Shown here: piece by piece, positions 31,430 through 60,788 of the stretch
How the letters are laid out: every line of letters begins with the position of its first letter
Position numbering within the stretch: position 1 is the stretch's first letter
From: Ignavibacteriota bacterium
GTDB taxonomy: Bacteria; Bacteroidota; Ignavibacteria; UBA10030; UBA6906
Assembly (NCBI GenBank): GCA_963811705.1
Contig: CAWESL010000015.1
Coordinates: 24,757 to 88,756 of the forward strand
Length of the DNA stretch: 64,000 nt
Direction: 5' to 3'
The notes under the pieces: generated by a model
Databases searched by the model: none
Seen by the model: the letters and a program-made list of their open reading frames with translations, nothing else
Told to the model about the DNA's origin: nothing
Program-made: the position numbers and the translations under genes

Positions 31430-31498
31430 TGGCATACATCCCAATCGACAATAGTCAGTGGACAATTAGCGTCCTACTCCTAGCCGAATGACGAAGTA

Positions 31499-34309: not shown

Positions 34310-34313
34310 ACCG

Positions 34314-36073: not shown

Positions 36074-36076
36074 CGC

Positions 36077-37924
36077 ATGACCAGGAATCGCTTTATCGTT
36101 CGTGTCGTCGCCGCCGCCTTCCTGGTGCTCGGGTCCGGCACTCTTCTTGCCCAGGAAGCGACGTTCCAGGCGAGTGTCGACAAGAACCCTGTCGGCGTCG
36201 GGGACCAACTCACGCTCTCATTCGCCCTGAACGGTGGCGGAGTGAACGGCGGGGAGAACATGAAACTCCCCGACCTGGGCAAATTCCGGATGCTCTCGGG
36301 GCCGAACCAGTCGACCAATATGCAGTGGGTCAACGGCAAGATGTCGTCTTCGGTCACGTACAGCTATGTCCTTCAGCCGAAGGAAATCGGGAAAATCACG
36401 ATCGGCCCCGCGTCGATTGTCGCCGGGGGAAAAACGCTGGAGAGCAATGCCATCGTGCTGGACGTCGTGAAATCCGCGCCGAAACCCAAACAGGCTCCCG
36501 CGCAGGACGTCAGCGGGCAGATTGCGGACAACTTGTTCGTCAAAGCCGTGGTCAGCAAGACCCGCGCCATCCAGGGCGATCAGATCAATCTGACATTCAA
36601 GTTGTATACGCGGCTCACGGTGCTGAACTATGCCGTCGAGAAAACGCCGACCATGACCGGATTCTGGGGCGAAGACGTTGAGACGCCGAAGGACATCCAG
36701 CTCGCCACGGAAACCGTCAACGGGAAACAATACCGTGTCGGGATCATCAAGAAGATGGCCTTGTTTGCGACGCAATCGGGGACGCTGGAGATCAGCCCGA
36801 TGCAGGTCCAGACGCAGATCCAGGTTCCGGCTCCGCGGTCGCTCGATCCGTTCGACGCGTTTTTCCGCGACCCGTTCGGGCGAACGACCAACTATACGGC
36901 GCAGAGCGAGCCGGTGAAGATCACGATCGAGCCTCTTCCGTCGGGCGCGCCCCCCGATTTCAAAGGCGCCGTCGGCCAATTCGCGATGAGCACGACGCTC
37001 GATAAGCGATCGACGAAGACCAACGAGCCGGTGTCGTTCAAGGTGACGATTTCCGGAACGGGCAACATCAAACTCCTTGAAGCCCCTTCGTTGGAACTTC
37101 CGTCCGATTTCGAGCAATACAGCCCAAAGATCACGGACAACATCAACCGGCAGGGCGATCGCATCAGCGGGAGCAAGGTGTTTGAGTACCTTCTCATTCC
37201 GCGGTACCCGGGGCTGAAGATCATCAAACCGCTGACCTTCTCCTACTTCGATCTCGCAAAACGGGAATACGTCCGGCTCCGCTCGCCTGAGGTGGAGTTG
37301 AACGTGGAGCAGGGGACGAGCTCCCCGCAGCCCCTTGCTGTCGGATCGAACAGGGAAGATGTCCGGCTGCTCAATCAGGACATCCGCTTCATCAAAGTGC
37401 GCGACACGGGATTCCGGCGTCAGGGTGAATTCCTGTACAACACGCCAATGTTCGTCGCCCTCTGGGTCCTGCCGCTCGCCGGACTCGCGGGCTCCGTGCT
37501 GTACACGCGCAACCGCCGGGCCATCATCGAAGACGTGGCAGGATACCGAAACAGGAAGGCCATCGGCGTGGCCCGGAAACGCCTGAAGGTCGCGGAACGC
37601 CTGATCAAAGATCTCTCGCCGAAAGCGGGTGCGACCGCCGCGACCGGACCTCGGTTCTATTCGGAAGTCTCCGGCGCGCTCTGGCAATACCTCGGCGACA
37701 AGCTCTCGATTCCGCAGGCGGAGTTTTCCGTTGAACGCGCAACCGGCTCGCTCGACGAGCACGGCGCCCCGGCAGAAACGATCGGCGCGCTGAAATCGCT
37801 TCTGGAAACGTGCGACCTCGTGCGCTTCGCCCCCGGAAATGTCGATCGGGCCGAAATGCAGCGGACCTATGACGAAGCGAGCCGCATCATTGTGGAACTC
37901 GAACAGAAGCTGAAATTCTCATGA
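36077..37924 (+). CDS. batD: BatD (oxygen-tolerance family) protein
   Basis: The ORF is 615 aa. A signal peptide is followed by repeated Ig-like exported modules, a single TM ('MFVALWVLPLAGLAGSVLY') and a cytoplasmic helical tail ending '...CDLVRFAPG'. Confidence 0.85.
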   Translation: MTRNRFIVRVVAAAFLVLGSGTLLAQEATFQASVDKNPVGVGDQLTLSFALNGGGVNGGENMKLPDLGKFRMLSGPNQSTNMQWVNGKMSSSVTYSYVLQPKEIGKITIGPASIVAGGKTLESNAIVLDVVKSAPKPKQAPAQDVSGQIADNLFVKAVVSKTRAIQGDQINLTFKLYTRLTVLNYAVEKTPTMTGFWGEDVETPKDIQLATETVNGKQYRVGIIKKMALFATQSGTLEISPMQVQTQIQVPAPRSLDPFDAFFRDPFGRTTNYTAQSEPVKITIEPLPSGAPPDFKGAVGQFAMSTTLDKRSTKTNEPVSFKVTISGTGNIKLLEAPSLELPSDFEQYSPKITDNINRQGDRISGSKVFEYLLIPRYPGLKIIKPLTFSYFDLAKREYVRLRSPEVELNVEQGTSSPQPLAVGSNREDVRLLNQDIRFIKVRDTGFRRQGEFLYNTPMFVALWVLPLAGLAGSVLYTRNRRAIIEDVAGYRNRKAIGVARKRLKVAERLIKDLSPKAGATAATGPRFYSEVSGALWQYLGDKLSIPQAEFSVERATGSLDEHGAPAETIGALKSLLETCDLVRFAPGNVDRAEMQRTYDEASRIIVELEQKLKFS

Positions 37925-38679
37925 ATCGAATCCGGTGGCTCCTGACTTTCCTGGTCATTCTCTCCGTCTCGGGGTTCGGACAAACGCCCGAACAGCTCTT
38001 CGGCGAAGGGAATCAAGCGTATCAGAAGGGGGACCTTGCGAAGGCGACGGAGTTGTACGAGTCGATCCTCCACAATGGCTATGTGAACAGCGATCTCTAC
38101 TATAATCTCGGCAACGCGTATTACAAGCAAGGGAACATCGCCAGGGCGATTCTGAACTACGAACGGGCCGCCCGCCTCACTCCCGGCGACGACGATCTCC
38201 GCCATAATCTCCAGCTTGCCAATCAGATGATCACCGACAGGATCGACCCGACGCCGCGGCTGTTCGTCTGGGATTGGTGGACGTCCATCAAGAACTGGCT
38301 GCCGTTTGAAACGCTGACGTGGCTGCTCTTCGTCGCCGTCACCCTCGTCGCGACGTCAATCTCCCTGGTGATCGCCGGTCGCTCCTATCGCATGCGCCGC
38401 ATCGCCTTGTTGTCGGCCCTCGTGGAAGGCCTGCTTCTCCTCCTTGTCGGAGCGATCTTTGCGGGGCGCTACTCGGATGTGCACCGGGCCGACGAGGCCA
38501 TCGTTGTAACGGCGGTGGTGAACGTCAAGAATTCGCCTGACGCGCGAAGCAGTGACGCCTTCGTCATCCATGCAGGCCTTAAAGTGCAACTGACCGATTA
38601 TCTTGGAAATTGGACCAAGGTAAGGCTGGCTGACGGCAAGGTCGGCTGGTTGGAGGGAAAAGATCTCGAAGCTATCTGA
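37921..38679 (+). CDS. batE: BatE: TPR, TM and C-terminal SH3-like domain protein
   Basis: It has an ATGA overlap with batD. The TPR is 'GNQAYQKGDLAKATELYESIL...YYNLGNAYYKQGNIARAILNYERAARLTP'. Two TM helices are present. The C-terminus 'WTKVRLADGKVGWLEGKDLEAI' is SH3b-like. Confidence 0.85.
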   Translation: MNRIRWLLTFLVILSVSGFGQTPEQLFGEGNQAYQKGDLAKATELYESILHNGYVNSDLYYNLGNAYYKQGNIARAILNYERAARLTPGDDDLRHNLQLANQMITDRIDPTPRLFVWDWWTSIKNWLPFETLTWLLFVAVTLVATSISLVIAGRSYRMRRIALLSALVEGLLLLLVGAIFAGRYSDVHRADEAIVVTAVVNVKNSPDARSSDAFVIHAGLKVQLTDYLGNWTKVRLADGKVGWLEGKDLEAI

Positions 38680-39575: not shown

Positions 39576-42266
39576 GTGGAACAGGAACATACTGAACATC
39601 TGACTGTGCCGCAAGACGGCGATACAAAGGATCGCTGGATCGAGAGTCTTGAGTTCGTCATCGAGACTGTGCTGCGGGATCGCGAGAGCGCACAGGTCCC
39701 GTTGCTGCTGGAGCGGCTGGTCACCCGGCTTCGCGAATCGGGTGTTCCGATTCCCACGACGGTCAGCACACCGTACGTTAACACCATTCCGCCCGACCGG
39801 GAGCCGCCATACCCCGGGAACAGGGAGATCGAGCGCCGCATCAAGAGTTATACCCGGTGGAACGCGATGGCCATGGTGGTTGCGGCGAATCGTCTGCACA
39901 GCGGATTGGGCGGCCATATTTCCACGTTCGCATCGTCGGCGACGCTGTATGATGTTGCCTTCAATCACTTCCTCCGCGGAGGCGAAGGAGAACACCCCGG
40001 AGACCTCGTGTACTTTCAGGGGCATGCCGTCCCGGGCATTTACGCGCGAGCATTTCTCGAAGGACGACTCGATGCAGCGCGCCTGCACAATTTCCGCCAG
40101 GATCTCGCGGCGGGCGGCGGGCTTTCCTCGTATCCGCACCCGTACCTGATGCCCGACTTCTGGCAATTTCCCACGGTCTCCATGGGCCTCGGCCCGATCA
40201 TGTCGATCTACCAGGCGCGGTTCAGCAGATACCTCCGCGCGCGGGGATTGAAGACCGGCGACGAACCGAAAGTGTGGGCGTTCGTCGGCGACGGTGAATC
40301 CGACGAGCCGGAAACGCTCGGCGCCTTGACGGTCGCAAGCCGCGAGCAGCTCGACAATCTCATCTGGGTGGTGAACTGCAATTTGCAGCGGCTCGACGGA
40401 CCGGTCCGTGGAAACGGTAAGATCATCCAGGAACTTGAGATGCTCTTCCGCGGTGCCGGATGGAACGTCATCAAGGTCATCTGGGGTTCGGATTGGGATC
40501 CCCTGTTCGCCGCGGACAAGAAAGGGTTGCTGTTGAAACGGATGGAGGAAGCGGTCGACGGCGACTACCAGAAATATTCCGTTGCTCCGGGGAGCTATAC
40601 CCGGAAGCATTTCTTCGGGAAATACCCGGAGCTGTTCGAGATGGTGAACCACCTCACGGATGCGCAGATCTCGAAGATGCTTCGGGGCGGACATGATCCG
40701 AAGAAAGTGTATGCGGCGTACAAGGCCGCGATGGAGCACACGGGATCGCCCACGGTGATCCTCGCGAAGACGATCAAGGGATACGGTCTGGGCGAGGCGG
40801 GAGAAGGCCGGAATGTCACGCATCAGCAGAAGAAACTGAACGAAAAGGAATTGCGGGAATTCCGTTTGCGGTTCGGCATCCCGATCAGCGATGAAGAGAT
40901 CGCCGAAACACCGTTTTACCGGCCTGCCCCCGAAAGCGAGGAGACGCAATATCTACTTGCCCGTCGGAAAGAACTGGGCGGAGCGCTTCCCAGGAGAGTG
41001 CCGTCGACCGAGCGTCTGACCGTGCCGCCGCTCGCCGCGTTTTCCGAGTTTCTGCGTGGGTCCGAACGGTTCGAGGTGTCCACGACAATGGCATTTGTGC
41101 GGATGCTGAGCATGCTTCTCCGGAACAAGGAGATCGGGAAACGGATTGTTCCGATCATCCCTGACGAAGCCCGCACGTTCGGCATGGACCCGCTGTTCCG
41201 GGAGATCGGCATCTATTCGTCCAAGGGACAGCTCTACGAACCGGTCGACAAAGAATCGCTTCTCTATTATAATGAGACAAAGGAAGGACAGATCCTCGAA
41301 GAGGGGATCACGGAAGCCGGCGCGATGTCGTCCTGGATCGCCGCGGCAACCTCCTATGCGACGCATGGTGTCCCGATGATCCCCTTCTACATCTACTACT
41401 CCATGTTTGGATTTCAGCGTACCGGCGATCTGATGTGGGCGGCGGGGGACATCAAAGCGAAAGGATTTCTTCTGGGCGGGACCGCGGGCCGGACGACATT
41501 GAACGGCGAAGGGCTCCAGCACGAGGACGGCCACAGTCACCTGCTTGCCAGCACCATCCCGACCATTCTGAGCTACGACCCCGCATGGGCGTATGAAGTC
41601 GCCGTCATCATCCAGGACGGACTGCGCCGGATGTATGGGGAAGGTCAGGATCTGTTCTACTATCTCACGCTCTACAACGAAAACTATCCGATGCCTCCGA
41701 TGCCCAAAGGCGTGGAGGAGGGGATTCTGAAGGGGCTCTACAAATTCTCCGAAGGCGCTGCGGACATGAAGTTGAAGGCACACATTCTCGGGAGCGGCCC
41801 GATCCTCCGGTTTGCCGTTGCAGCGCAGAAAATTCTCGCCGAACGGTACAACGTTTCGGCCGATGTCTGGAGCGCAACGAGCTACAAAACCCTCCGCGCC
41901 GATGCGGTGCTCAAGCGGCGCTGGAACATGCTCCACCCCACGCAGCCGCCGCAAGCATCGTACCTGGAAACGCTTCTTTCAAAGGAGCAGGGAGTCTTCG
42001 TCGCGGTGTCGGACTACATGAAACTTGTCCCGGATCAGATCGCGCCGTGGGTGCCGGGCGGCCTGACGACGCTGGGGACGGACGGATTCGGGCGGAGCGA
42101 CACGCGTTCCCAGCTGCGAAGATTTTTTGAAATCGACACGGAGTCCATCGTGGTCGGGACGCTGTATGCCCTTGCTGAAAAAGGACAGGTCAAGCGCCAG
42201 GCGGTGGAGAAGGCCATCAAGGAACTCGGCGTCGATCCGGAGAAACCCTATCCGGAAATTCACTAA
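39576..42266 (+). CDS. aceE: Pyruvate dehydrogenase E1 component (homodimeric AceE type)
   Basis: The start codon is GTG and the ORF is 896 aa. 'GGHISTFASSATLYDVAFNHFLRG', 'VWAFVGDGESDEPETLGAL' and 'NCNLQRLDGPVRGNGKIIQELE' are present. Confidence 0.95.
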   Translation: MEQEHTEHLTVPQDGDTKDRWIESLEFVIETVLRDRESAQVPLLLERLVTRLRESGVPIPTTVSTPYVNTIPPDREPPYPGNREIERRIKSYTRWNAMAMVVAANRLHSGLGGHISTFASSATLYDVAFNHFLRGGEGEHPGDLVYFQGHAVPGIYARAFLEGRLDAARLHNFRQDLAAGGGLSSYPHPYLMPDFWQFPTVSMGLGPIMSIYQARFSRYLRARGLKTGDEPKVWAFVGDGESDEPETLGALTVASREQLDNLIWVVNCNLQRLDGPVRGNGKIIQELEMLFRGAGWNVIKVIWGSDWDPLFAADKKGLLLKRMEEAVDGDYQKYSVAPGSYTRKHFFGKYPELFEMVNHLTDAQISKMLRGGHDPKKVYAAYKAAMEHTGSPTVILAKTIKGYGLGEAGEGRNVTHQQKKLNEKELREFRLRFGIPISDEEIAETPFYRPAPESEETQYLLARRKELGGALPRRVPSTERLTVPPLAAFSEFLRGSERFEVSTTMAFVRMLSMLLRNKEIGKRIVPIIPDEARTFGMDPLFREIGIYSSKGQLYEPVDKESLLYYNETKEGQILEEGITEAGAMSSWIAAATSYATHGVPMIPFYIYYSMFGFQRTGDLMWAAGDIKAKGFLLGGTAGRTTLNGEGLQHEDGHSHLLASTIPTILSYDPAWAYEVAVIIQDGLRRMYGEGQDLFYYLTLYNENYPMPPMPKGVEEGILKGLYKFSEGAADMKLKAHILGSGPILRFAVAAQKILAERYNVSADVWSATSYKTLRADAVLKRRWNMLHPTQPPQASYLETLLSKEQGVFVAVSDYMKLVPDQIAPWVPGGLTTLGTDGFGRSDTRSQLRRFFEIDTESIVVGTLYALAEKGQVKRQAVEKAIKELGVDPEKPYPEIH

Positions 42267-42307
42267 GCACCGTCCGCTGCATTGAATGACTCAGGAGAGA
42301 CTATCGC

Positions 42308-43642
42308 ATGGATGTGAAACTCCCACGACTTGGAGAAGGCGCAGACTCCGGAACCGTTGCAAGCGTCTTCGTGCACGTTGGCGACAAAGTCAACAAGGAC
42401 CAGCCGGTTCTCGAGCTCGAGAGCGACAAGGCGGTCGCATCGATTCCGTCGCCGTCCGCCGGGACGGTGACGAAGATCCACGTCAAGGAAGGCGACCTGA
42501 TCAAAGTCGGCCAGCTGATTGTGTCGCTGGACGAGGGAAGCACGCCGGAGCCGGTCGTCAGTCACAAACGCGAAGAGATCGAGGAGCCGGAGATCTCGGT
42601 GGCGCCTTCCGGGACGCTGGTCGGGCCGTCGAATACGCCGATCCCGATGACGCAGCACCCCGTCGAAGAACGTCCGACGATGATGTCGGGAATCCTGCCG
42701 TCGCCGAGCGCACTGCCTCCGGCGGCGTCACCCACCATCCGAAAGATCGCCCGCGACCTGGGCATCGATCTTCGCCGTGTCCGCGGGACCGAGCGCGGCG
42801 GCCGGATTGTCATCGGCGACTTGCGCACGTATATTGCCCTCCTGCAGGAAATCGCCGGCCGGGCACAGGGTGCGCCGACGACGGAACAAGTATCGCCCCC
42901 GTCCGCCCCGACGGTGCAGCCGGTCGACTTTTCGAAGTGGGGGCCGGTCCATACGGAGAAACTGTCCACGCTGCGGCGCACGATCAGCACGCGGATGACG
43001 GATGCCTGGACGGCGATCCCGCATGTCACGCAGTTCGATCAGGTGGACATCACGGACCTTCTCGCGTTGCAGAAAAAATACGCCGCGGCGTATGAGAAGA
43101 AGAAGGCGCGGCTGACCCTGACGCCCCTGTTGCTCAAGGCGCTGGCAGGCGTGATCAAAAAGCACCCGAAATTCAACGCGAGCCTTGACGAGCTCAACGG
43201 CCAGCTCGTGTTCAAGGACTATTTCCATTGCGGCATCGCGGTGGATACCGAGCTGGGGTTAATCGTTCCGGTGATCCGCGACGTCGATAAAAAGCCGCTA
43301 TTGGATCTGGCGCTCGAATTGCAGGACCTGGCCGTCAGGACGCGCGAGCGAAAGGTCGGATTGAACGAGATGGCCGGCGGTACCTTTACGATTTCCAACC
43401 AGGGCGGAATCGGAAGCGGGCATTTTACGCCGATCATCAATCGCCCCGAAGTTGCGATCCTCGGCGTGGCCCGCGCGACCGAACAGATGGTGTTCCGGAA
43501 GACGAAGTTCGTTCGCCGCACCATCCTCCCGGTCAGCCTTTCCTACGACCATCGGGTGATCGACGGGGCCGACGCCGCGCGGTTCATGGTTGATTTCGTC
43601 GCGACGCTCGAGCGCTTGGGCGAAAAAGAAATCAAGCTTTGA
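42308..43642 (+). CDS. aceF: Dihydrolipoamide acetyltransferase E2 (single lipoyl domain)
   Basis: The lipoyl motif 'LELESDKAVASIPSP', the E3-binding domain 'ASPTIRKIARDLGIDLRRVRGTERGGRI' and the catalytic 'SLSYDHRVIDGADAARF' are present. Confidence 0.95.
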   Translation: MDVKLPRLGEGADSGTVASVFVHVGDKVNKDQPVLELESDKAVASIPSPSAGTVTKIHVKEGDLIKVGQLIVSLDEGSTPEPVVSHKREEIEEPEISVAPSGTLVGPSNTPIPMTQHPVEERPTMMSGILPSPSALPPAASPTIRKIARDLGIDLRRVRGTERGGRIVIGDLRTYIALLQEIAGRAQGAPTTEQVSPPSAPTVQPVDFSKWGPVHTEKLSTLRRTISTRMTDAWTAIPHVTQFDQVDITDLLALQKKYAAAYEKKKARLTLTPLLLKALAGVIKKHPKFNASLDELNGQLVFKDYFHCGIAVDTELGLIVPVIRDVDKKPLLDLALELQDLAVRTRERKVGLNEMAGGTFTISNQGGIGSGHFTPIINRPEVAILGVARATEQMVFRKTKFVRRTILPVSLSYDHRVIDGADAARFMVDFVATLERLGEKEIKL

Positions 43643-43691
43643 CACGTTCCCAATTCATGACATCAGGAAAAGCCGGTAAGCGAGGTATCCA

Positions 43692-45125
43692 GTGAAAGCA
43701 ACGAAGACGGACATTGTCGTAGTCGGTGCGGGACCCGGCGGCTATGCTGCGGCGTTTTACGCGGCCGAGCTGGGCAAAAGCGTCGTTATGGTGGAAATGG
43801 ACAAACGCCTTGGCGGCGTCTGCCTGAACCGCGGATGCATTCCATCGAAAGCGCTGCTGCACGCGTCCAAATTGATCAAGGAAGCGGAAGAGTCGGGGTT
43901 TCGCGGGATCGAATTCGAAAAACCGAAGATCAACCTCAGGCAAATGCGCGAGTGGAAGGAATCGATTCTCGCGAAGCTCGCCCAGGGCGTCGCGGATCTC
44001 GCGAAGAAGCGTGGCGTGACCGTGATCTATGGCCGCGGGTATTTCGAGGATTCGAAAACCCTTCGTGTCGAAACCTCCGGCGGACAAACCTACTTCACCT
44101 ATGACCAGGCCATCATTGCGACGGGATCGCTCGCCGCGATGCCGGCGGCGTTCGATCTCGGCAACCCCCGGATCATGACGTCGACGGAGGCGCTGGAGAT
44201 CGAGGATGTGCCGGAGCGAATGCTGATCGTCGGCGGCGGGTACATCGGAATGGAACTGGGCACCGTCTACCAGACGCTCGGCAGTACCATCGTGCTCGTG
44301 GAAGCCCTCGGCACAATATTGCAGGGAGCCGACGCAGATCTCGTCCGCCCCGTTCTCCGGTATGTCGAGAAGAATTTCGAAGAAGTGCGGACGAATGCCA
44401 AGGTGCTGAAGATGGCGACGAGCGGGAAACAGATCAAGGTCACGATCGAACACAACGGTCAGACGAAGGATGAACTGTACGACCGCGTGCTCGTGTCCGT
44501 CGGCCGGACGCCGAACAGCCGGAACCTCGGCCTGGAGAACACGAAGGTGACGCTTGATGAAAAGGGGTTCGTCAAAGTGAATGATCGGCAACAGACGGAC
44601 GATGCTTCAATCTACGCCATCGGCGATGTCGCGGGGGGAGTGCTTCTCGCGCACAAGGCCTCGAAGGAGGCCCGGGTGGCGGTCGAGGTGATCTGCGGAG
44701 AGATGAGTCAATTCAAAGACATCGTCATCCCTGCAGTGGTGTTTACCGATCCCGAGATTGCGTGGTGCGGTTTGACGGAAGCGGAAGCGAAGGAGAAGGG
44801 GATCGAGGTGCAGACGGCAAAGTTCCCGTGGTCGGCGTCGGGGCGGGCGTTGAGTTTCGACCGGACCGAAGGGATGACCAAGCTGATCATCGATCCGCAA
44901 ACCGAACGGCTCCTGGGAGTGGGGATCGTGGGTGTCGGCGCGGGAGACCTTATCAGTGAGGCGGTTGTTGCCATCGAGCTGGGAGCCACGGCGCGTGACC
45001 TAGCCGAGTCCGTCCATCCGCATCCCACCCTGTCCGAAACGCTGAGCGAAGCTGCCGAAGTGTTCTACGGTGTTTCGACACACATGTATTCACGGCGCAA
45101 GGCGAAACAGGAACCGGCACTCTGA
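43692..45125 (+). CDS. lpdA: Dihydrolipoyl dehydrogenase E3
   Basis: The start codon is GTG. The FAD motif 'VVVGAGPGGYAAA', the redox disulfide 'GGVCLNRGCIPSK' and the C-terminal 'HPHPTLSE' are present. Confidence 0.95.
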   Translation: MKATKTDIVVVGAGPGGYAAAFYAAELGKSVVMVEMDKRLGGVCLNRGCIPSKALLHASKLIKEAEESGFRGIEFEKPKINLRQMREWKESILAKLAQGVADLAKKRGVTVIYGRGYFEDSKTLRVETSGGQTYFTYDQAIIATGSLAAMPAAFDLGNPRIMTSTEALEIEDVPERMLIVGGGYIGMELGTVYQTLGSTIVLVEALGTILQGADADLVRPVLRYVEKNFEEVRTNAKVLKMATSGKQIKVTIEHNGQTKDELYDRVLVSVGRTPNSRNLGLENTKVTLDEKGFVKVNDRQQTDDASIYAIGDVAGGVLLAHKASKEARVAVEVICGEMSQFKDIVIPAVVFTDPEIAWCGLTEAEAKEKGIEVQTAKFPWSASGRALSFDRTEGMTKLIIDPQTERLLGVGIVGVGAGDLISEAVVAIELGATARDLAESVHPHPTLSETLSEAAEVFYGVSTHMYSRRKAKQEPAL

Positions 45126-48278: not shown

Positions 48279-49337
48279 CTACGCGACCGTGATTTCTTTC
48301 GACAGGTAGACATCCTGGATGGCATTCAACAGCTTTGCCCCTTCCGCCATCGGACGCTGAAACGCTTTCCGTCCGCTGATCAGACCCATCCCTCCTGCGC
48401 GTTTGTTGATGACGGCAGTCTTGACCGCTTCGGCGAGATCGCTTTCACCCGAAGAAGCCCCTCCGGAATTGATCAGTCCCGCCCGGCCCATGTAGCAATT
48501 CGCGACCTGATACCGTGTAAGATCAATTGGATTGTCCGAGGTCAGATCGGTATACACCTTCTTGTGCGTTTTGCCGAAATTCAGCGCGGTGAATCCGCCG
48601 TTGTTTTCCGGAAGCTTCTGCTTAATGATATCCGCCTGAATGGTAACCCCGAGGTGGTTGGCCTGACCGGTCAGGTCGGCCGACACGTGATAATCTTTTT
48701 CCTTCGTCTTGAAAGCACTGTTCCTCGTGTAGCACCAGAGCACCGTCGCCATCCCCTTTTCGTGAGCATAGGCGAAGGCCTTTGCGACTTCCTGAATCTG
48801 CCGTTTTGATTCTGCGGACCCGAAGTAAATTGTCGCGCCGACCGCGACCGCTCCCATGTCCCACGCCTGGTCGATCGTCCCGAACATGATCTGATCGTAC
48901 GTGTTGGGATACGTGAGAAACTCGTTGTGATTGAACTTTACCAGGAACGGAATCTTGTGGGCATATTTCCGGGCAACGCTTCCGAGGACGCCGAACGTGG
49001 AAGCGACGGCATTACAGCCGCCCTCGATGGCAAGTTTCACGATGTTTTCGGGGTCAAAATACGCAGGATTCGGAGCGAACGATGCCCCGGCGGAGTGTTC
49101 GATCCCCTGGTCGACCGGTAGAATAGAGACATATCCGGTTCCAGCGAGGCGTCCGGTGTTGAAGAGGGATTGCAGGCTCCGCAGGACCATGGGACGGCGG
49201 TCAGACGGGACAAATATACGGTCGACAAAGTCGGGTCCGGGAACGTGAATGGTTTCCTTGGGGATCCCCTTGCAGTGGTGGTCAAGAAGACTGCGGGCAT
49301 CGGCACCAAGGAGGGACTCGATTTCCTTCAGTGTCAT
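48279..49337 (-). CDS. fbaB: Class I fructose-bisphosphate aldolase (FbaB/DhnA type)
   Basis: The 352-aa product aligns along its full length with E. coli FbaB as I recall it: '[39 protein letters not shown]', '[16 protein letters not shown]' and '[19 protein letters not shown]'. Confidence 0.93.
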
Positions 49338-54745: not shown

Positions 54746-57061
54746 TTGGCTGAACTTGATGACGCGACTCGACAAGAGCAGCGAAAAAAGGCCGGCGATT
54801 TCTTGAAGATGGCCGACAAGCTTTTTAAGAACGGCGACCTGTCGGGCGCGACCCGCCTCGTTGAGATGGCCGTTGCCGTCGATCCGCAGAACCCGTATGT
54901 CAATGCCTACGCAGAACGTCTCAAACTGGCTGTAACCTCTGCGAGTCCTTCCGCATCCGGCACCGCGCCTTTGCCGCCTGCGCCCCGCGCGTCCGGAACG
55001 CGGCCGTCCCCGGCCTCCCCGACGGCGTCGGGAACACGGCCAACGCCCTCCGCGTCGCCGACGGAATCGGGAACCCGCCCTCCGGTCTCAAAGTCTCCGG
55101 TTCCCGTTCCGCCCCCCGCTCCCGCCCCTCCACAGCAGCATGTCCTGCCGCCGAATGCGCATGGGAGTGCCCTCGACCATGAAATGCGGCGCAACGCGGA
55201 AGTCGAAGGCCGCCGCATGGCCCGCGAGGATGAGATCAGGAATAAAGTGGAGGATGAATACCGGCCGAAACTTGAAGAAGCCGTGAAGGCTGTCGAAGAG
55301 CAGCGCCGGCTTCTTGTCGAGGAAAAACGGTATCGTGCTGAAGTTGAAACCGAATACCGGAACCTGATGTCAACGCGCGAGGCCCAGCTGAAGGACGAAC
55401 TCGCCCAGCAACTGGCACTCGAACGCCGGCGGCTGGAAACGGAGTTTGCCTCGCGCTTGCAGGTCGAGAAGGCCACCGTCGAGGAGGTCACGGGTCGCCG
55501 CAAAGCCCAGGAAGAACGTGCACGGGCGCTCGAGGAAAGCCGGCGCATGATCGACGCAGAACGGATCCGCCTCGAACGTGAAATGGAAACCCGTCTGGCC
55601 GAGGAACGTGCGCGGCTGCAACAGCTCAGGGTCCAGGAAGAGACCGCTGCAACGGAACGGCGAAAGGCCACGGAGCAGCAACTGCATCAATTGCAGGAAG
55701 ATCTCCACAGGAAAATGCAGCAGGAGTTGAATGCGACGCGTGAGCGGCTGGAGGACGAATCGCGGCGCCAGCTTTCTTCGGAACACCGGCGGCTCGAAGA
55801 AGCGCGTTCCCGTGAACAGGCGGAGATCAAGGAAACCCAACGGCAATTCGAGGACGATACGCGGCGCCGCATGGAGGATGAACTTGCCCAACGGCTCGTG
55901 AGGGAACGTTCGAACCTGGAAGCGGAAACGCGACGGCAGCTCGACATCGAGCGCGCGAAAATCGAGGAAGACGCATTCCGGCGCGCCGAGGAAGACGCAA
56001 CGGCCCGGATGGAAAAACAGGACCGGATCGCGTCCGAACTTCGAGCGAAGGCGGAAGAAGAGCGTAAACGCCAGGAGGAGGAACAGGACCGCAAACTGCA
56101 CCAGGAGGCTGAGGAAACCCGGCGGTACGAAGAAGCGGTGCGCCAGGCGATCGAAGAAGGTCAGCGCGTGGCACACGGAAAGAAAGTGCGCATTCATCTG
56201 GACCAGGCGCTGCTCGCGCTCGACGGTCACAACTACGACGATGCGCTTCAGGAAATCACGCGCGCCCTTCGCGTTGACCCGACCAACCCTGAGGGGCTCA
56301 GTCTGGAGAAGCGGGTGTACGCGGAACGCGACGAGGCGGGCCGGACAAAGGACCTGCAGGAACGGCGTGCGAAGCAGCGGGAGAGACTCGAGGAACTTCA
56401 ACGACGTCTCGAAGAGCAGGCGAAGCGCGATGCCGAGGAGCAGAAACAGCGCGCGATCCGTGAGGCAAAGATCGCGTCCTCGCTGCGCAAGGTCAGGGAA
56501 TTGCAGCGGAACGGCCAGCTGGACGGAGCCGTCTCCGAACTGAACACCCTCTACACGATCGATCCCGGAAACGTCACCGGCCGGGAAATTGAAATGGAGA
56601 TCGTTGCGACGCAGCATTCCCGCGAACGCGCGGAGGAGCTGTCGGAACAACGCTCCGCCGAGAACGAGTCGTGGCGGCGCGAAGAGGAAGGACGTGCGAT
56701 GGAACGGCAGGCCGATCGCGAGCGCCTGAAACAGGATGCTGCGGAGTCCTGCCGCAGCATGTTGAAGCAGGCTTGGGTGAACGGAACGCCTCCAAGCGAT
56801 GAACGGGCGATGATCGAAGTCATCCGGCTGTCGCTTGGCATTTCCGACGACGAACGCGATGCGCTTGAGCGGGAGATCCGCGCCGAGTGCTATGCCGACG
56901 CGTTCCGTTCCGCACAGCAGCATGGCATTCTCAGGGAGAACGACGAACGCTCCCTCGAACCGCTGCGTCAGGTCTTCGGCATCGACACCTCCGAGGCCCG
57001 GCAGATCGAGTCCAGCGTCCTTCGCGACGCGGCAACAAAGACGTCCTCCACACGAGAATAA
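54746..57061 (+). CDS. Giant E/R/K-rich helical (coiled-coil or single-alpha-helix) protein with TPR-like units and a TerB-like C-terminal module
   Basis: The ORF has a TTG start at 54746 after AAAGGTAGAGGA; an alternative ATG is at 54809. It is 771 aa. It contains SGTRP Pro-rich repeats and more than 300 aa of near-continuous charged helix. The C-terminus is 'ERAMIEVIRLSLGISDDERDALEREIRAECYADAF'. Confidence 0.7.
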   Translation: MAELDDATRQEQRKKAGDFLKMADKLFKNGDLSGATRLVEMAVAVDPQNPYVNAYAERLKLAVTSASPSASGTAPLPPAPRASGTRPSPASPTASGTRPTPSASPTESGTRPPVSKSPVPVPPPAPAPPQQHVLPPNAHGSALDHEMRRNAEVEGRRMAREDEIRNKVEDEYRPKLEEAVKAVEEQRRLLVEEKRYRAEVETEYRNLMSTREAQLKDELAQQLALERRRLETEFASRLQVEKATVEEVTGRRKAQEERARALEESRRMIDAERIRLEREMETRLAEERARLQQLRVQEETAATERRKATEQQLHQLQEDLHRKMQQELNATRERLEDESRRQLSSEHRRLEEARSREQAEIKETQRQFEDDTRRRMEDELAQRLVRERSNLEAETRRQLDIERAKIEEDAFRRAEEDATARMEKQDRIASELRAKAEEERKRQEEEQDRKLHQEAEETRRYEEAVRQAIEEGQRVAHGKKVRIHLDQALLALDGHNYDDALQEITRALRVDPTNPEGLSLEKRVYAERDEAGRTKDLQERRAKQRERLEELQRRLEEQAKRDAEEQKQRAIREAKIASSLRKVRELQRNGQLDGAVSELNTLYTIDPGNVTGREIEMEIVATQHSRERAEELSEQRSAENESWRREEEGRAMERQADRERLKQDAAESCRSMLKQAWVNGTPPSDERAMIEVIRLSLGISDDERDALEREIRAECYADAFRSAQQHGILRENDERSLEPLRQVFGIDTSEARQIESSVLRDAATKTSSTRE

Positions 57062-57074
57062 GCGCTGCTCCCCG

Positions 57075-57938
57075 TCACGCTTTCCCCCTGCTGAACCGGC
57101 GTGCGAGGTTCCGCCGGTACAGGATGGCCCCCCACCACACGCCGTTCGAAACGAGAAGATTGAAGAGAAGGTAGTGAGGAAGGGCGCCGAAGAGGGTGAA
57201 CGCCGCGAGCACGGCGTTCTCCGTTCCCAATCCCAATAACCCCGACCACCGAATTCCTTTCCTGTCGCCGTACCACGACGCTTCATCCACGACCTGGCCG
57301 CGTTTCGACCACCGATCGATCCGTATCATCATCCTGTCCTGCCAACCATAGAAAAAAAGAAACCCCCGCTGCAGCCGGAGTGTCCATCGATCCTGCTCGA
57401 GGTCCTCGGGCCTGATCTCCTCCGTTGTGCGATTCCCTGCATAGGCGTTCTGCAGGTGCAGGAACGACGTCTGGTAAAAGACATGATAGGATACGCGGAG
57501 CGTGAGGCAGGTGAACGCCGCTGCGGAGAAGAGAAGCCAGAACGGAAGAGCCCCCTGGCGACCGAGGGAAAAGCCGATCGCGCCGAAGATCGCGATGTTG
57601 ACGACGATGTCGCCGATCGAATCGAGGAAACGTCCCAGTCTGCTGAACTGCTTCCGGGCCCGGGCAAGCTGCCCGTCGGCGGAATCGAGGATGTCCTTGA
57701 CGATCAGGAGCAACCCTGCGAGGGGAGCAAATGCGGATGAGCCTTCGAAAAACGCGAAGGCGCTGCAAAGACCCGCCAGGAGTGCTGCGATGGTGATCTG
57801 ATTCGGCGTGATGCGTGTCGGGTAGGACCAACGGACCACGATGCCGGCCAGCGGTCGAATGACATGGCGATTAATCAGTTCGTCCGCTACGTCGGACTTC
57901 GTTGACTGCGTGTACGAATATGGCTCCGGTTCGGTCAT
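57075..57938 (-). CDS. CDP-alcohol phosphatidyltransferase-family membrane protein (copy 2, last gene of the operon)
   Basis: ATG at 57938 forms an ATGA overlap with the upstream gene. The full signature D-x2-D-G-x2-A-R-x8-G-x3-D-x3-D is present as 'DSADGQLARARKQFSRLGRFLDSIGD'. The protein is polytopic. Confidence 0.9.
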   Translation of the reverse strand: MTEPEPYSYTQSTKSDVADELINRHVIRPLAGIVVRWSYPTRITPNQITIAALLAGLCSAFAFFEGSSAFAPLAGLLLIVKDILDSADGQLARARKQFSRLGRFLDSIGDIVVNIAIFGAIGFSLGRQGALPFWLLFSAAAFTCLTLRVSYHVFYQTSFLHLQNAYAGNRTTEEIRPEDLEQDRWTLRLQRGFLFFYGWQDRMMIRIDRWSKRGQVVDEASWYGDRKGIRWSGLLGLGTENAVLAAFTLFGALPHYLLFNLLVSNGVWWGAILYRRNLARRFSRGKA

Positions 57939-58654
57939 AACCCCGTCGTGATCGCCAGATTGGCGGCAGCCGCAAGATCTTGAGGCGTATCGATCTCCAT
58001 GCACGGCAGCCCTTGCGTCGAAACAGCGGCGATTCTCGAGCCGTTCTGAATGATTTCCTGAAAGGACGCCTCATAGAACTCGTCGTGAACCCTTCGGCGG
58101 CTGAGTGTCGCGAACAGCCTGCGGGCCGTGCCGGCGCTGAATTTCTCGATGCCGATCGACTCCCCGGCGGCCCGCACCGCATCCACCTGCTTTCCAATCT
58201 CAAGAACATACCCGCCGTCGAGGATCACTTTGATTTCTTCAGCGCCGAGGTCGCAGTCCTCCCGGATGAGAAGTGCGTCCGGGAGGGATGAGGAAAGAAG
58301 AAGAGCCAGGAGCCGGGGATCGAAGAGGATGTCGGAATCGAGAACAAGAATATCGCTGTTCTGAATGGCGGTTAGTGCCAGCCAGAGCGAGGCGTTGTTG
58401 TTCGTCGATGCGAAGTCGGGATTGTTTACGAAGCGTACCGGCATCGACAAGCACATCGACCGGACCGAGTCCTCGATCATTGCGCGGAGATGGCCCGTGA
58501 CGATAACGCAGTCGGAAATCCCGGACGACTGAAGAGCCCTGAGTGTCCTTGGGAGAAGACCCTCCGGGCCGACGGGGAGGAGGCACTTGGGGCAGGAGTC
58601 CGTAAGAGGCCGGAGCCGCGCGCCGACGCCGGCAGCGAGAACGATCCCGGTCAT
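57935..58654 (-). CDS. LicC-like phospho-alcohol/sugar-phosphate nucleotidyl (cytidylyl) transferase
   Basis: ATG at 58654 forms an ATGA overlap with the upstream gene. 'MTGIVLAAGVGARLRPLTDSCPKCLLPV', 'STNNNASLWLA', 'LVLDSDILFD', 'ESIGIEKFS' and 'MEIDTPQDL' align by eye with LicC-type enzymes. The ORF is 239 aa. Confidence 0.85.
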   Translation of the reverse strand: MTGIVLAAGVGARLRPLTDSCPKCLLPVGPEGLLPRTLRALQSSGISDCVIVTGHLRAMIEDSVRSMCLSMPVRFVNNPDFASTNNNASLWLALTAIQNSDILVLDSDILFDPRLLALLLSSSLPDALLIREDCDLGAEEIKVILDGGYVLEIGKQVDAVRAAGESIGIEKFSAGTARRLFATLSRRRVHDEFYEASFQEIIQNGSRIAAVSTQGLPCMEIDTPQDLAAAANLAITTGL

Positions 58655-59727
58655 GGAGTCGGAATCTTCTCGGGAGCAAGGAGCGGCAGGTGAAGAGAAC
58701 CGGTGGCGACCTCTCGAAAGGCGTCTCTGACGGCGGCGTTCTGCTCCCGGGTGCCGATGGTGATGCGAATGCAATCCTCCAGTCCCGGATCATCCAGAAA
58801 CTTCACGATGACGCCCCGTTGCTCGAGGCCCTCTTTGAGAGGCGTCCGCAGATGTCGCGGATAGCGGACGAGGAGAAAATTCGCTTCGGACGGGAAGGGG
58901 AAAAACCCTTGAATCCGGCCGAGATCATGGATGTACCGGTGCAGATCCTCACGCATCGCCTGCGCGATCGACGCATAGTAGCCGGGCTCGTCAAGCGCGG
59001 CCAGGGCGATCCGTTCGGAGAGCTGATTGAACCCGAGATAGCGCGCGCTGAAGGCGATCAGCTGTCGCACATCGTTCCCGACGAACGCATACCCGATCCG
59101 CAAGCCTGCGAGAGCGTAGTACTTTGAAAACGTCCGGAGGATGACCAGCCGGCCGTGAAGCGCGAGAAGCTCCTCCGGATTGCCGCCGGTGTCATCGGTG
59201 AATCCAAAGTATGCCTGGTCGAGGACGATGACGGATTCCGTGCAATGTGCGACCACGCGCCGGAGTGCATCGGGAGGAATCGTGTTGCCGGTCGGGTTGT
59301 TTGGCGAGGCGATCAGGATGACGTTCGGTCGGTGGCGATCATACAGGGCGAGGATTTCATCAACATCATGCTCGAATCGCCCATTCCGTTCGCGGACGGC
59401 ATAGTGGATCTCGTGGCCGAAGACTTCCTTCGCCACGGACTTGTAGTACCACCAGGATTGACTCGGGAGAAGGATCGCTTCACCCTGGTGGAGATAGCAG
59501 TGGACCACCTGCTTCAGCATATCCTCGCTGCCGTAGCTCAACAGCACCCGCTCTTCGGGAATGTGACATTCGGCGCCGAGGCGTGCTGAGAGGTCGCTCT
59601 TTCTGCCGCCGGCATACGCGCGAGAGTAGAGACTGAGTTGCTCGAGGTTCGCCTTCCGAAGTGCGTCGTAGCATCCGGGAGCAGGACCATACTGGTTCTC
59701 GTTTCTATCGAGGAGGATTTTTGTCAT
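58651..59727 (-). CDS. Class I/II PLP-dependent enzyme, HisC/CobD-like (phospho-substrate aminotransferase or decarboxylase)
   Basis: The internal ATG at 59727 of ORF 58651..60021 gives 'MTKILLDRNENQYGPAPG'. 'IASPNNPTGN', 'LDQAYFGF' and the PLP lysine motif 'RTFSKYYALAGLRIGY' are present. The ORF is 358 aa. Confidence 0.85.
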   Translation of the reverse strand: MTKILLDRNENQYGPAPGCYDALRKANLEQLSLYSRAYAGGRKSDLSARLGAECHIPEERVLLSYGSEDMLKQVVHCYLHQGEAILLPSQSWWYYKSVAKEVFGHEIHYAVRERNGRFEHDVDEILALYDRHRPNVILIASPNNPTGNTIPPDALRRVVAHCTESVIVLDQAYFGFTDDTGGNPEELLALHGRLVILRTFSKYYALAGLRIGYAFVGNDVRQLIAFSARYLGFNQLSERIALAALDEPGYYASIAQAMREDLHRYIHDLGRIQGFFPFPSEANFLLVRYPRHLRTPLKEGLEQRGVIVKFLDDPGLEDCIRITIGTREQNAAVRDAFREVATGSLHLPLLAPEKIPTP

Positions 59728-60652
59728 AGCTCGGTTCCAGTGTCGATTGCCGGCCCTCCGCATCACGAGGGTCCTGATCAGTGGCGGCCGCACGGGTTGA
59801 ACGTGCCACCCTTCTATCGATCCGGTGCTGCCATGTGAGCAGAAACAGCATGTAGAGCGTTCCGGGGATCGCCGCCGCCCAGCAAAAAATATCGGGACGG
59901 CCGAAGAGGGCGGCGATGATAAGGCCGCTCCGGTTCGTCGTTGGGCCCAGGAGGGTCCACCACCGCATGGCTCCGAGGTTGGCCGCCCGGTAACGATCCA
60001 CCGGGATGACGGGGCCGGCATTCTCGGAGACCTGCAGTTGTCCCTGAAATGTCATGTAGCTCAAATAGAGCCGCAATGCGATGCGCTTTCCGAACCATAC
60101 CCCCGTATCGTTTTCCAGAACGGAACGCGCCCGCGCGAGTTCGCTCGCAAGTTGATTTTCTTTTCCTCGGACAGCGGCAATATACGATTGCTGGTGAGAG
60201 TCGAAGACGATCGCGTGGAGCGCCGAGGTGACTCCTCCGGCGACCGCCAGCCACCAGTACGAGGGATTCCCGGTAAGCGACGACAGGCCGAGACCAACGC
60301 CGGCAAAAATCGCAACGCTGGTCACCCAGTCGGCGATGCCATCCACAAGGCGGCCGAACGGTGTGCCGCTCTTCTGCAGCCGCGCGAGCATTCCATCCGC
60401 GCAGTCGAAAACATTCGCCAGCGCATACCAGAGCGCCGCGTAGAAAAACCAGGAGGCTGTTCCCTGCGCGAAGCACCAGGCGGAAATCAGGCCGGCAAGG
60501 AGGGAAACCCCTGTGACCTGGTTCGGCGTGATTGGCAGGCGGTAGATCGTCTTTACCACCAGGAATGCGGCGGGTCGGTAGAAGAAAAGATCCAGAAGTT
60601 CTTCCACTTCGGCCAACTTCAGAGAATTTTTGTACTCGGTAAGGAGAGACAT
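59705..60652 (-). CDS. CDP-alcohol phosphatidyltransferase-family membrane protein (copy 1, first gene of the operon)
   Basis: The internal ATG at 60652 gives MSLLTEYKN. The signature 'DCADGMLARLQKSGTPFGRLVDGIAD' is present. The protein is polytopic. Its 3' end overlaps the next gene by 23 nt. Confidence 0.9.
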   Translation of the reverse strand: MSLLTEYKNSLKLAEVEELLDLFFYRPAAFLVVKTIYRLPITPNQVTGVSLLAGLISAWCFAQGTASWFFYAALWYALANVFDCADGMLARLQKSGTPFGRLVDGIADWVTSVAIFAGVGLGLSSLTGNPSYWWLAVAGGVTSALHAIVFDSHQQSYIAAVRGKENQLASELARARSVLENDTGVWFGKRIALRLYLSYMTFQGQLQVSENAGPVIPVDRYRAANLGAMRWWTLLGPTTNRSGLIIAALFGRPDIFCWAAAIPGTLYMLFLLTWQHRIDRRVARSTRAAATDQDPRDAEGRQSTLEPSYDKNPPR

Positions 60653-60788
60653 AGGGAGGTTGATCCTCAAGTTAGGCCTTTTTCCCAAATACGCAAGGAG
60701 CCGTATTTACTAGGTGCGAGAAAATGGCTATATTGGACTGATGCATTGAAAACCTTCTTCATTTCGAAAGGGAATCGTACACGACATC

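Follow-up and report, generated by a model that had tools for sequence, protein, structure and literature searches.

The stretch analysed here, called the window throughout, comprises 64,000 nucleotides of an Ignavibacteriota bacterium (assembly GCA_963811705.1, contig CAWESL010000015.1), and all coordinates are given within it. At 57075-60652 the window carries four overlapping minus-strand genes, in the order A, B, C and D, and this operon probably encodes a de novo head-group pathway of the Kennedy type, whereby an amino-alcohol phosphate would be made, activated with CTP and put on membrane lipids. In the proposed scheme, the pyridoxal phosphate (PLP) enzyme B would turn a phosphorylated central metabolite into a small amino-alcohol phosphate, and the LicC-like nucleotidyltransferase C, judged by homology, would join this product with CTP to give a CDP-amino-alcohol. 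The CDP-alcohol phosphotransferases A and D would then pass the phospho-amino-alcohol to two different membrane acceptors: the one expected for A is (dihydro)ceramide or a related lipid, and the one for D diacylglycerol or another lipid. More generally, the transferase found with the module would decide where the CDP-amino-alcohol goes, a PF01066 enzyme directing it to lipids and LicD to glycans. The model is supported by the adjacency of B and C in 26 of 26 loci, by natural fusions, by varied transferase partners and by a supercluster of sphingolipid and inositol-lipid genes. The gene anatomy, the motifs, the exclusion of B from the HisC and CobD families by their own criteria, the obligate B-C linkage, the fusions and the interchangeable transferases were all observed directly.

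The four open reading frames (ORFs) and their overlaps were recovered from the ORF list of the window, as an earlier reading of this DNA, made from the sequence only, had described them. Gene A (59705-60652, minus strand, 315 aa) encodes a CDP-alcohol phosphotransferase, a member of what is called here the A clade, and is optional among relatives. It overlaps by 23 nt with gene B (58651-59727, minus strand, 358 aa), which encodes the predicted maker of the amino-alcohol phosphate. The B/C and C/D junctions are 4-nt ATGA overlaps: gene C (57935-58654, minus strand, 239 aa) encodes the LicC-like nucleotidyltransferase and gene D (57075-57938, minus strand, 287 aa) a second CDP-alcohol phosphotransferase, of the D clade, which is the conserved partner of B-C in this lineage. 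Gene starts were picked to match the lengths and N-termini of orthologues, and the 23-nt and 4-nt overlaps are also present in the relatives L001 and L002. The assignments to PF01066 (A and D), PF00155 (B) and PF12804/PF00483 (C) held in HMM comparisons, and the peptide strings that the sequence-only reading had quoted from B and C were all found in the translations. Those of the checks suggested in that reading which were run all favoured its interpretation.

B is a PLP enzyme of the HisC/CobD fold, as had been proposed: it matches PF00155 (126.9 bits), and its AlphaFold2 model (pLDDT 91.8) has HisC and CobD as top fold matches in Foldseek (TM 0.78-0.85 for HisC, 0.84 for CobD 1LC7). Against the curated models, B scored 220.8 bits with TIGR01141 (hisC), under the equivalog cut-off of 276.55, and 129.9 bits with TIGR01140 (CobD), under the cut-off of 290.55. 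A profile of the B family reached most solved HisCs with 110-153 bits (about 97-100 for the M. tuberculosis, T. maritima and S. meliloti enzymes) and CobD with 85 bits.

B was aligned with E. coli HisC (from NC_000913) and with CobD sequences recovered from PDB alignments (1LC5, 3FTB and 3FKD). The PLP-binding residues are kept in B (N144, D170, Y173, S201-K202 and R210). In HisC terms, Asn157, Asp184, Tyr187, Lys214, Arg222 and the distal Arg335 correspond to N144, D170, Y173, K202, R210 and R321. The codon of the PLP-binding lysine K202, in the motif TFSKYYA, lies at 59122-59124 on the minus strand and aligns with K214 of E. coli HisC and K216 of CobD. R321, the distal arginine that anchors the substrate phosphate or carboxylate, is also kept.

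The rest of the active site differs from both enzymes. Because the N-terminus of B begins only five residues ahead of the conserved DRNEN motif, B has neither the Tyr20 lid of HisC nor the HGG[ND] arm of CobD (an arm seen in 1LC5 and 3FTB; the corresponding part of 3FKD was not recovered). At pocket positions 85, 110, 112, 243 and 322 (E. coli HisC numbering), HisC has D, Y, M, Y and R, CobD has T/S, F/Y, E, W and R, and B has E68, W92/W93, Y94/Y95, L231 and K309; the CobD residues at the B-signature positions are T86, F108, E110, W246 and R323. The HisC pocket (Tyr20 lid, Asp85, Tyr110 and Tyr243*), whose functional roles were taken from the study of M. tuberculosis HspAT (PMC4703992), is thus absent or replaced in B by E68, W92/93 and L231. 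None of the features shared by the CobD sequences (HGG[ND] arm, Glu110, Trp246 and Arg323) is found in B, which has Y94/95, L231 and K309 instead. B was accordingly rejected as a HisC (score below the TIGR01141 cut-off, lid absent, D85 replaced by E, Y110 by W, M112 by Y and Y243 by L, all family-invariant replacements), and on these grounds it is not the housekeeping enzyme. It was likewise rejected as a CobD (score below the TIGR01140 cut-off, hallmarks missing by comparison with the recovered CobD, 3FTB and 3FKD sequences).

The pocket signature E68, W92, W93, Y94, Y95, L231 and K309 is invariant in 41 diverse members, down to 35% overall identity, and of the 150 best representatives of 50%-identity clusters about 90 carry it. 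When 1.84 billion representatives were searched with a profile, 3337 proteins matched at E <= 1e-30, ordinary HisCs included. Since the B-specific residues are invariant or recurrent and the scores lie below both cut-offs, B is, by its sequence, a third, uncharacterised subfamily of the HisC/CobD fold; its members are publicly annotated as 'histidinol-phosphate aminotransferase'. The retained phosphate anchor, combined with a filled-in pocket, suggests that the substrate is a small phosphorylated compound. Two B-type proteins, P0242 (479 aa) and P0257 (411 aa), were considered as fusion proteins and rejected: both contain exact internal duplications of about 60-130 residues and are probably assembly artefacts.

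C had been described as a small LicC-like nucleotidyltransferase, and this is borne out. It matches PF12804 (52.4 bits) and PF00483 (46 bits), its N-terminus MTGIVLAAGVGARLRPLT fits the NTP-transferase motif (L)AAGxGxRLxPLT, and its best solved relative is LicC 1JYK (E 1.6e-16, 63.7 bits, aa 3-227), followed by the PntC fusion 6PD1 (E 1e-12, 51.3 bits). Enzymes named as sugar-1-phosphate nucleotidyltransferases reached at most 29.6 bits, over the N-terminal ~115 residues or fewer, and the unnamed nucleotidyl transferase 4Y7T reached 40.2 bits over the N-terminal half. With NF041135 (IPCT/DIPPS), C scored 65.1 bits, matching the IPCT half over its full length; the equivalog cut-off of that model is 580. 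In a 25-sequence family alignment, D106 (in the conserved LDSD) and E195 (in the invariant FYE) align with D105/D192 of LicC and E104/E196 of PntC, the acidic residues that bind the substrate amine (PMC6697681). This match depends on the alignment, since the pairwise HMMER alignment is shifted by three residues, and invariance refers to the sequences shown. With LicC and PntC as nearest relatives and both amine-binding positions kept in that alignment, C resembles these more than the sugar-1-phosphate enzymes and is predicted to be a LicC/PntC-like CTP:phospho-amino-alcohol cytidylyltransferase.

A and D are CDP-alcohol phosphotransferases by their sequences (PF01066, 56.1 and 51.5 bits; cut-off 22), and transfer of a phospho-alcohol is predicted for both. 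The complete signature D-x2-D-G-x2-A-R-x8-G-x3-D-x3-D claimed for them was matched exactly by regular expression and translation: DCADGMLARLQKSGTPFGRLVDGIAD in A (aa 83-108; 60329-60406, minus strand) and DSADGQLARARKQFSRLGRFLDSIGD in D (aa 85-110; 57609-57686, minus strand). The motif residues of D are invariant across 26 orthologues. The two had also been called paralogous polytopic proteins. They are polytopic, with several transmembrane-like segments each by hydropathy (in about three separate regions of A and four of D); their paralogy is only distant (31% identity; 92 bits, for an alignment that covers part of the sequences), and they fall into different clades. Both lie outside the clade termed PT2 (60-78 bits to its members, compared with 176-296 bits within it), to which the transferase of the inositol-lipid cluster of Heaver et al. 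(2022) belongs.

The solved relatives of the two transferases are distant. For D, the best are IPCT/DIPPS 4MND and AF2299 4O6M, followed by weak matches to CEPT1 and CHPT1 (E 0.0014-0.008), and in NCBIfam D scores highest with archaetidylinositol-phosphate synthase (59.0 bits) and IPCT/DIPPS (58.9 bits). Its model is all-helical (pLDDT 85.4), with AF2299 as best fold match (TM 0.56). The fold search returned family-level matches only (AF2299, PIPS and DIPPS) and gave no clue to the acceptor or to a conserved hydrophilic region at about aa 150-240. The nearest solved relatives of A are AF2299 and PIP synthases, again a family-level resemblance. Orthologues of A at 46-57% identity were found in L005, L026 and L018, and A-clade members at 35-38% identity lie between B and C near serine palmitoyltransferase (SPT) in two Bacteroidales loci (L030 and L042); A is absent from L003 and from many B-C-D loci. 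A (dihydro)ceramide-type lipid is tentatively suggested as the acceptor of A because its clade is embedded beside SPT, and a diacylglycerol-type acceptor was assigned to D by default, equally tentatively.

The conservation of the operon was assessed by scanning a D-family alignment against one genome per GTDB species, with four further loci added by exact look-up. D orthologues at >=44% identity occur only in about two dozen uncultured metagenome-assembled genomes (MAGs), nearly all labelled Ignavibacteriota, Bacteroidota or Chlorobi, and three labelled Chitinophagales/Chitinophagaceae. Counted as 90%-identity clusters, there are more than 120 relatives of B at >=58% identity and more than 120 of D at >=50% identity, from metagenomes and MAGs labelled Bacteroidota or Ignavibacteriota. 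The arrangement A-B-C-D was found at six loci, B-C-D at nine, C-D at three, A-D at two and D alone at four; on these counts, B-C-D is the core of the lineage and A is accessory. The fifteen loci with B-C-D, with or without A (L001-L005, L008, L011, L013, L017, L019-L023 and L026), come from many independent MAGs, a recurrence that is more than chance and that answers the question of synteny in relatives positively. No his genes were seen in the 64-kb window, screened by inspection, or in the related loci. Three loci have features of their own: the genes upstream of C-D in L016 were considered as an alternative supplier of the phospho-alcohol and rejected, being a split UvrD helicase; L003 has only a 57-aa ORF at the place of gene A (7818-7991); and in L025 (9872-10874) D is broken up into two ORFs, perhaps through a frameshift or an assembly error or because it is a pseudogene.

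The B-C pair is distributed far more widely than D. For each of the 26 B-type genes collected, a C gene lies on the same strand and no more than 1.2 kb away. Natural fusions combine a winged helix (wHTH), a LicC-like NTP-transferase and a B-like PLP domain (P0458, P0463, P0476 and P0531), and one such LicC::PLP fusion adjoins LicD. Known fusions of LicC with choline kinase resemble this architecture, the PLP domain here replacing the kinase. The LicC-fused clade differs from B at four pocket positions ([A/S]68, M144, F231 and R309), and its product may for this reason be akin to that of B yet distinct from it.

The partners of B-C are interchangeable: the D clade in Ignavibacteriota-like genomes, the A clade in Bacteroidales, the PT2 clade in Prevotella, and LicD. 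In two uncultured Bacteroidales MAGs (L030 and L042), SPT and two paralogous proteins of 373-384 aa precede B, an A-clade transferase, C and LysE; then come a second NTP-transferase, a gene judged by eye to be TetR-like, an ATP-grasp-like gene, a PT2-clade CDP-alcohol phosphotransferase and, further on, MIPS. The SPT of these loci scored 682 bits with NF047600 (equivalog cut-off 640), and homologues of the two paralogues beside it, which have no known function, also adjoin SPT in other lineages. A B-A-C module and a MIPS/NTP-transferase/PT2 module thus stand side by side next to SPT, the sphingolipid starter enzyme, an arrangement which by analogy suggests that B holds the logical position of MIPS in the CDP-inositol module. 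In Prevotella (L088, L089 and L093), B-C follows a PT2-clade transferase and LPG_synthase_TM, downstream of a CarboxypepD_reg protein; LPG_synthase_TM and CarboxypepD_reg accessory genes were also noted around inositol clusters by Heaver et al. (2022; PMC9246714). At six further loci (L086, L087, L090-L092 and L094, from Prevotella sp. oral taxon 299, Phocaeicola oris and other Prevotella), B-C is accompanied by one or two LicD genes, and in L090 LicD is fused to a TagF-like Glyphos_transf domain. The B family is abundant in human-associated Prevotella, Hoylesella and Phocaeicola: cultured carriers of B-C are Prevotella sp. oral taxon 299 F0039, Hoylesella nanceiensis and Phocaeicola oris, and B-C is also carried by Hoylesella marshii (the match being a MAG).

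For the head group, two products were chiefly considered, both of which are made in Campylobacter jejuni from central metabolites: Cj1437 converts dihydroxyacetone phosphate (DHAP) to (S)-serinol phosphate, and Cj1436 converts phosphoserine to ethanolamine phosphate (PMC11800397). Phosphoethanolamine, formed by decarboxylation of O-phospho-L-serine, is slightly favoured, at somewhat less than an even chance, because the sphingolipids of Bacteroidales are reported to carry phosphoethanolamine and phosphoinositol as their phospho head groups. Prevotella copri makes dihydroceramide phosphoethanolamine (DHC-PE) and dihydroceramide phosphoinositol (DHC-PI), whose head groups are the two of the phospho type that have been reported from sphingolipids of Prevotella (PMC10865984); the Bacteroidales supercluster, in turn, holds exactly two modules, one of them for inositol. 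Serinol phosphate from DHAP is almost as probable a product, and other small amino-alcohol phosphates take up what is left. In its full form, the serinol alternative keeps the same architecture and makes B a DHAP:glutamate aminotransferase, so that CDP-serinol would lead to phosphatidylserinol and/or ceramide phosphoserinol and to phosphoserinol glycans at LicD loci, that is, to new phosphoserinol lipids and LicD-dependent glycan decoration in human Prevotella, Hoylesella and Phocaeicola. This full form is less likely than not. B is closer to HisC than to CobD, both by the curated models and by the family profile, and carries no CobD hallmark; the residues that hold the imidazole in HisC are bulkier in B and the lid is lost, as expected if -CH2-imidazole had shrunk to -CH2OH, and the Arg321/K309 anchors and the keto-phosphate chemistry would be retained. 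Cj1437 provides a precedent for the reaction, and the fusion of LicD with a Glyphos_transf domain in L090 fits such a product. Enzymes of the Glyphos_transf class normally use glycerol-like CDP-alditols, and serinol is 2-amino-2-deoxyglycerol. However, the residues specific to HisC are missing from B too, so that its closer likeness to HisC does not decide the matter, and a serinol-headed lipid was not found in the literature searched. In P. copri, whose carriage of the module is unconfirmed, lipidomics reported only dihydroceramide (DHC), DHC-PE and DHC-PI among the myriocin-responsive features (PMC10865984).

Other explanations dispense with the lipid head group or with the novelty of B. D, and possibly A, could join the CDP-amino-alcohol to a small phospho-alcohol, giving soluble phosphodiesters in the manner of the DIPPS compatible solutes. 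The NCBIfam matches of D (58.9 and 59.0 bits) and of C (65.1 bits with the IPCT half) and the PDB matches to 4MND and AF2299 point in this direction, but the scores are far under the equivalog cut-off of 580, the informative contexts of B-C are related to lipids or the envelope (SPT, LPG_synthase_TM, inositol-lipid cluster and LicD), and no phosphatase gene accompanies the operon. Soluble products are therefore improbable, and membership of the IPCT/DIPPS family itself was rejected on the scores of C and D and on the lack of a MIPS homologue in the window. Still less probable is a phosphonate pathway, in which B would transaminate phosphonoacetaldehyde or phosphonopyruvate, C would be a PntC making a CMP-aminophosphonate, and A and D would build phosphonolipids. 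C is indeed related to PntC (6PD1), PntC with an aminotransferase and LicD or a lipid transferase is a known architecture (PMC6697681), and a Cyclobacteriaceae locus (L059) combines Ppm, Ppd and 2-aminoethylphosphonate (AEP) transaminase with a CDP-alcohol phosphotransferase and SPT. Against it, neither the window nor any of the 26 B-containing loci holds a homologue of Ppm, Ppd or the class-V AEP transaminase, on which ground this pathway was rejected; Ppm defines phosphonate biosynthetic neighbourhoods (PMC8942020), and the known AEP transaminases belong to PF00266, not PF00155. No more credible is a plain histidinol-phosphate or aromatic aminotransferase, or a cobamide CobD, set by accident among lipid genes. 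The public label of B speaks for it, as do cobalamin-related genes that lie upstream of B-C, a few genes away, at two Prevotella/Phocaeicola loci, L087 (6001-6555, a PduO-type adenosyltransferase, Cob_adeno_trans) and L090 (1276-5989, CbiC, CbiG and TP_methylase), an association that was judged coincidental. The scores under both curated cut-offs, the loss of the specificity residues of both enzymes, the adjacency of B and C at 26 of 26 loci and the LicC-like fusions argue against it. In addition, no his or cob genes were seen on inspection of the window, as the sequence-only reading had stated, and Porphyromonas gingivalis, also of the Bacteroidales, has a separate canonical CobD (3FKD) with CobD hallmarks.

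The Kennedy-type reading has its own points of weakness. Sequence and fold do not distinguish an aminotransferase from a decarboxylase in B, the fold comparison being uninformative on this point since HisC and CobD match about equally well, and the nucleotide specificity of C is assigned by homology only. Among solved structures, D comes closest to AF2299, the acceptor of which is not known, and to IPCT/DIPPS, whose product is soluble. The link of the A clade to ceramide comes from two related Bacteroidales MAGs, and SPT was found neither in the window nor within 10 kb of D-clade genes. All D-clade carriers are uncultured, and the cluster is not contiguous everywhere: L006, L016 and L024 have C-D only, L018 and L025 have A-D but neither B nor C, and L010, L012, L014 and L015 have D alone. 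Finally, Bacteroides thetaiotaomicron makes PE-dihydroceramide and no Bacteroides entry appears among the named matches of the B family, so B-C is probably not a universal route to this lipid.

The proposed pathway is known in kind, by analogy with the Kennedy, LicC/LicD, PntC and proposed CDP-inositol systems. The closest parallel is the putative inositol-lipid cluster of Bacteroides vulgatus and Prevotella, which consists of MIPS, an NTP-transferase, a CDP-alcohol phosphatidyltransferase and HAD (Heaver et al., 2022; PMC9246714) and whose pathway is itself unconfirmed. In both systems, a maker of the phospho-alcohol would feed a LicC-like NTP-transferase and then a PF01066 enzyme acting on diacylglycerol or ceramide; both modules lie side by side in L030 and L042, and the PT2 clade and LPG_synthase_TM accompany B-C in L088 and L093. 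Here, however, a HisC/CobD-fold PLP enzyme replaces MIPS, and A and D fall outside PT2; the window contains no MIPS, and on inspection no HAD-type gene stands out among the neighbours of the operon.

The LicC/LicD system of S. pneumoniae (1JYK) and PntC (6PD1) are the most similar to C and share its amine-binding acids, B-C pairs with LicD in Prevotella, Hoylesella and Phocaeicola, and the PntC-AEPT fusion Tde1415 of Treponema denticola likewise joins a LicC-like domain to a PLP enzyme. The source of the phospho-alcohol differs, being here a class-I/II HisC-like PLP enzyme rather than the choline kinase LicA or Ppm/Ppd with a class-V transaminase, and the acceptor enzymes of the window are PF01066 membrane transferases, not LicD. 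In the eukaryotic Kennedy pathway (ECT/CCT with CEPT1/CHPT1), in Treponema (LicCA with Cpt) and in the Drosophila ceramide phosphoethanolamine (CPE) synthase system, a CDP-amino-alcohol is likewise used on diacylglycerol or ceramide by a PF01066 enzyme. D weakly matches CEPT1 and CHPT1, but the cytidylyltransferase here has the LicC fold instead of the HxGH fold of CCT/ECT, and de novo PLP chemistry would take the place of a kinase acting on a free base. Cj1437 and Cj1436 are PLP-dependent and make exactly the two candidate products from central phospho-metabolites; they are likened to B by its predicted reaction only, and their products are amide-linked to capsular glucuronate by an ATP-grasp enzyme rather than CDP-activated. 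B shares with HisC and CobD the fold (TM 0.78-0.85), the PLP-binding residues and the distal phosphate-anchoring arginine, and differs in its pocket, its N-terminal arm and a genomic context unrelated to histidine or cobamide synthesis. IPCT/DIPPS and AF2299, similarly, pair an NTP_transf_3-type cytidylyltransferase, split off here, with a PF01066 transferase; the differences are the scores (59-65 bits vs 580), the lack of MIPS here and contexts of lipid or envelope glycan rather than solute.

A divergently transcribed pfkA flanks the operon upstream; on the downstream side, a gene for a 771-aa coiled-coil protein runs towards it. The 136-bp divergent intergenic region between A and pfkA (60653-60788) is presumed to hold the operon promoter, because it is the sole non-coding gap upstream of the four overlapping genes; a scan of the operon for promoter and terminator consensus sequences found nothing above chance, with a sigma-70 consensus that does not cover Bacteroidota-type promoters. 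On inspection, the remaining ORFs of the window included no conspicuous his, cob or lipid genes. The 771-aa protein (54746-57061, plus strand) is rich in Glu, Arg and Lys, is predicted to be coiled-coil, has a conserved N-terminus (DDATRQEQRKKAGDFLKMADKLFK) and matched no Pfam domain. Its gene lies directly downstream of D, the two stop codons being 13 bp apart, and is placed equally beside D in L001 (10667-12943), L003 (10669-13056), L012 (9251-11902) and L015 (2127-4688), so that it persists even at loci where D is alone. Elsewhere in the window, N-terminal sequences read by eye point to a MoxR/BatA-D-like aerotolerance operon (30440-38679), a pyruvate-dehydrogenase E1-E2-E3 cluster (39576-45125) and a class-I-type fructose-bisphosphate aldolase (48279-49337). 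The aldolase and the divergent pfkA both feed DHAP production.

Several related loci are of interest in themselves. A sister clade of B (representatives P0446-P0546), which includes all LicC fusions, has Met in place of the otherwise universal asparagine that contacts PLP-O3' (N144 in B, N157 in HisC), an unusual active site for the HisC/CobD fold. In L095 (5306-14395), four genes come after LicD and a LicC::PLP fusion (P0458). They encode a fused E1 dehydrogenase, a lipoyl-domain protein in which a PglD-like hexapeptide acyltransferase replaces the normal E2 core, a lipoate ligase and E3, and may form an N-acylation system that is driven by a 2-oxoacid and has the amine as its target. In a Gemmatimonadota MAG (L034, 8674-18262), a CDP-alcohol phosphotransferase is flanked, by eye, by class-III aminotransferase-like, Gfo/Idh/MocA-like and LPG_synthase_TM-like genes. 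About 6 kb away lie an epimerase-like gene, a homologue of the SPT-neighbour proteins of L030 and SPT, with similar arrangements in L031, L047, L064 and L075; such clusters may serve another sphingolipid head group, perhaps an aminated cyclitol. The Cyclobacteriaceae locus L059 (3375-19651), read by eye and with phmmer, holds a cytidylyltransferase-PEP-mutase fusion, Ppd, a class-V AEP transaminase and a CDP-alcohol phosphotransferase, and also SPT with two SPT-neighbour homologues, an epimerase-like gene, an NTP-transferase and MIPS, which makes it a candidate locus for a sphingophosphonolipid and an inositol sphingolipid.

Bacteria usually make phosphatidylethanolamine and related lipids via CDP-diacylglycerol, and CDP-alcohol routes of the Kennedy type are rare: one is known in Treponema for choline and another has been proposed, as yet unproven, for inositol in Bacteroidota. 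The literature searched for the B-C module, for CDP-serinol or phosphatidylserinol and for a bacterial CDP-ethanolamine/CPE-synthase route held no description of the module, in keeping with the earlier statement that no characterised pathway has exactly this gene set. What is new is a PLP subfamily placed to supply the phospho-alcohol, the fact that this subfamily is always paired with, and sometimes fused to, a LicC-like enzyme, and the A and D clades. If the reading is true, the operon would be a self-sufficient Kennedy-type route that draws its amino-alcohol phosphate from central metabolism and needs no exogenous base or kinase. Because cultured carriers of B-C exist, the hypothesis is directly testable. 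Solving the function of B would correct a widespread mis-annotation as 'histidinol-phosphate aminotransferase' and would uncover either serinol phosphate as a new head group or a missing route by which phosphoethanolamine reaches the sphingolipids and glycan decorations of Bacteroidota. Solving the module would also assign functions to three uncharacterised clades of CDP-alcohol phosphotransferases that recur beside bacterial sphingolipid genes. Since the sphingolipids and phospho-decorated surface glycans of Bacteroidota are immunologically active, the products of the module would matter for host-microbe biology.

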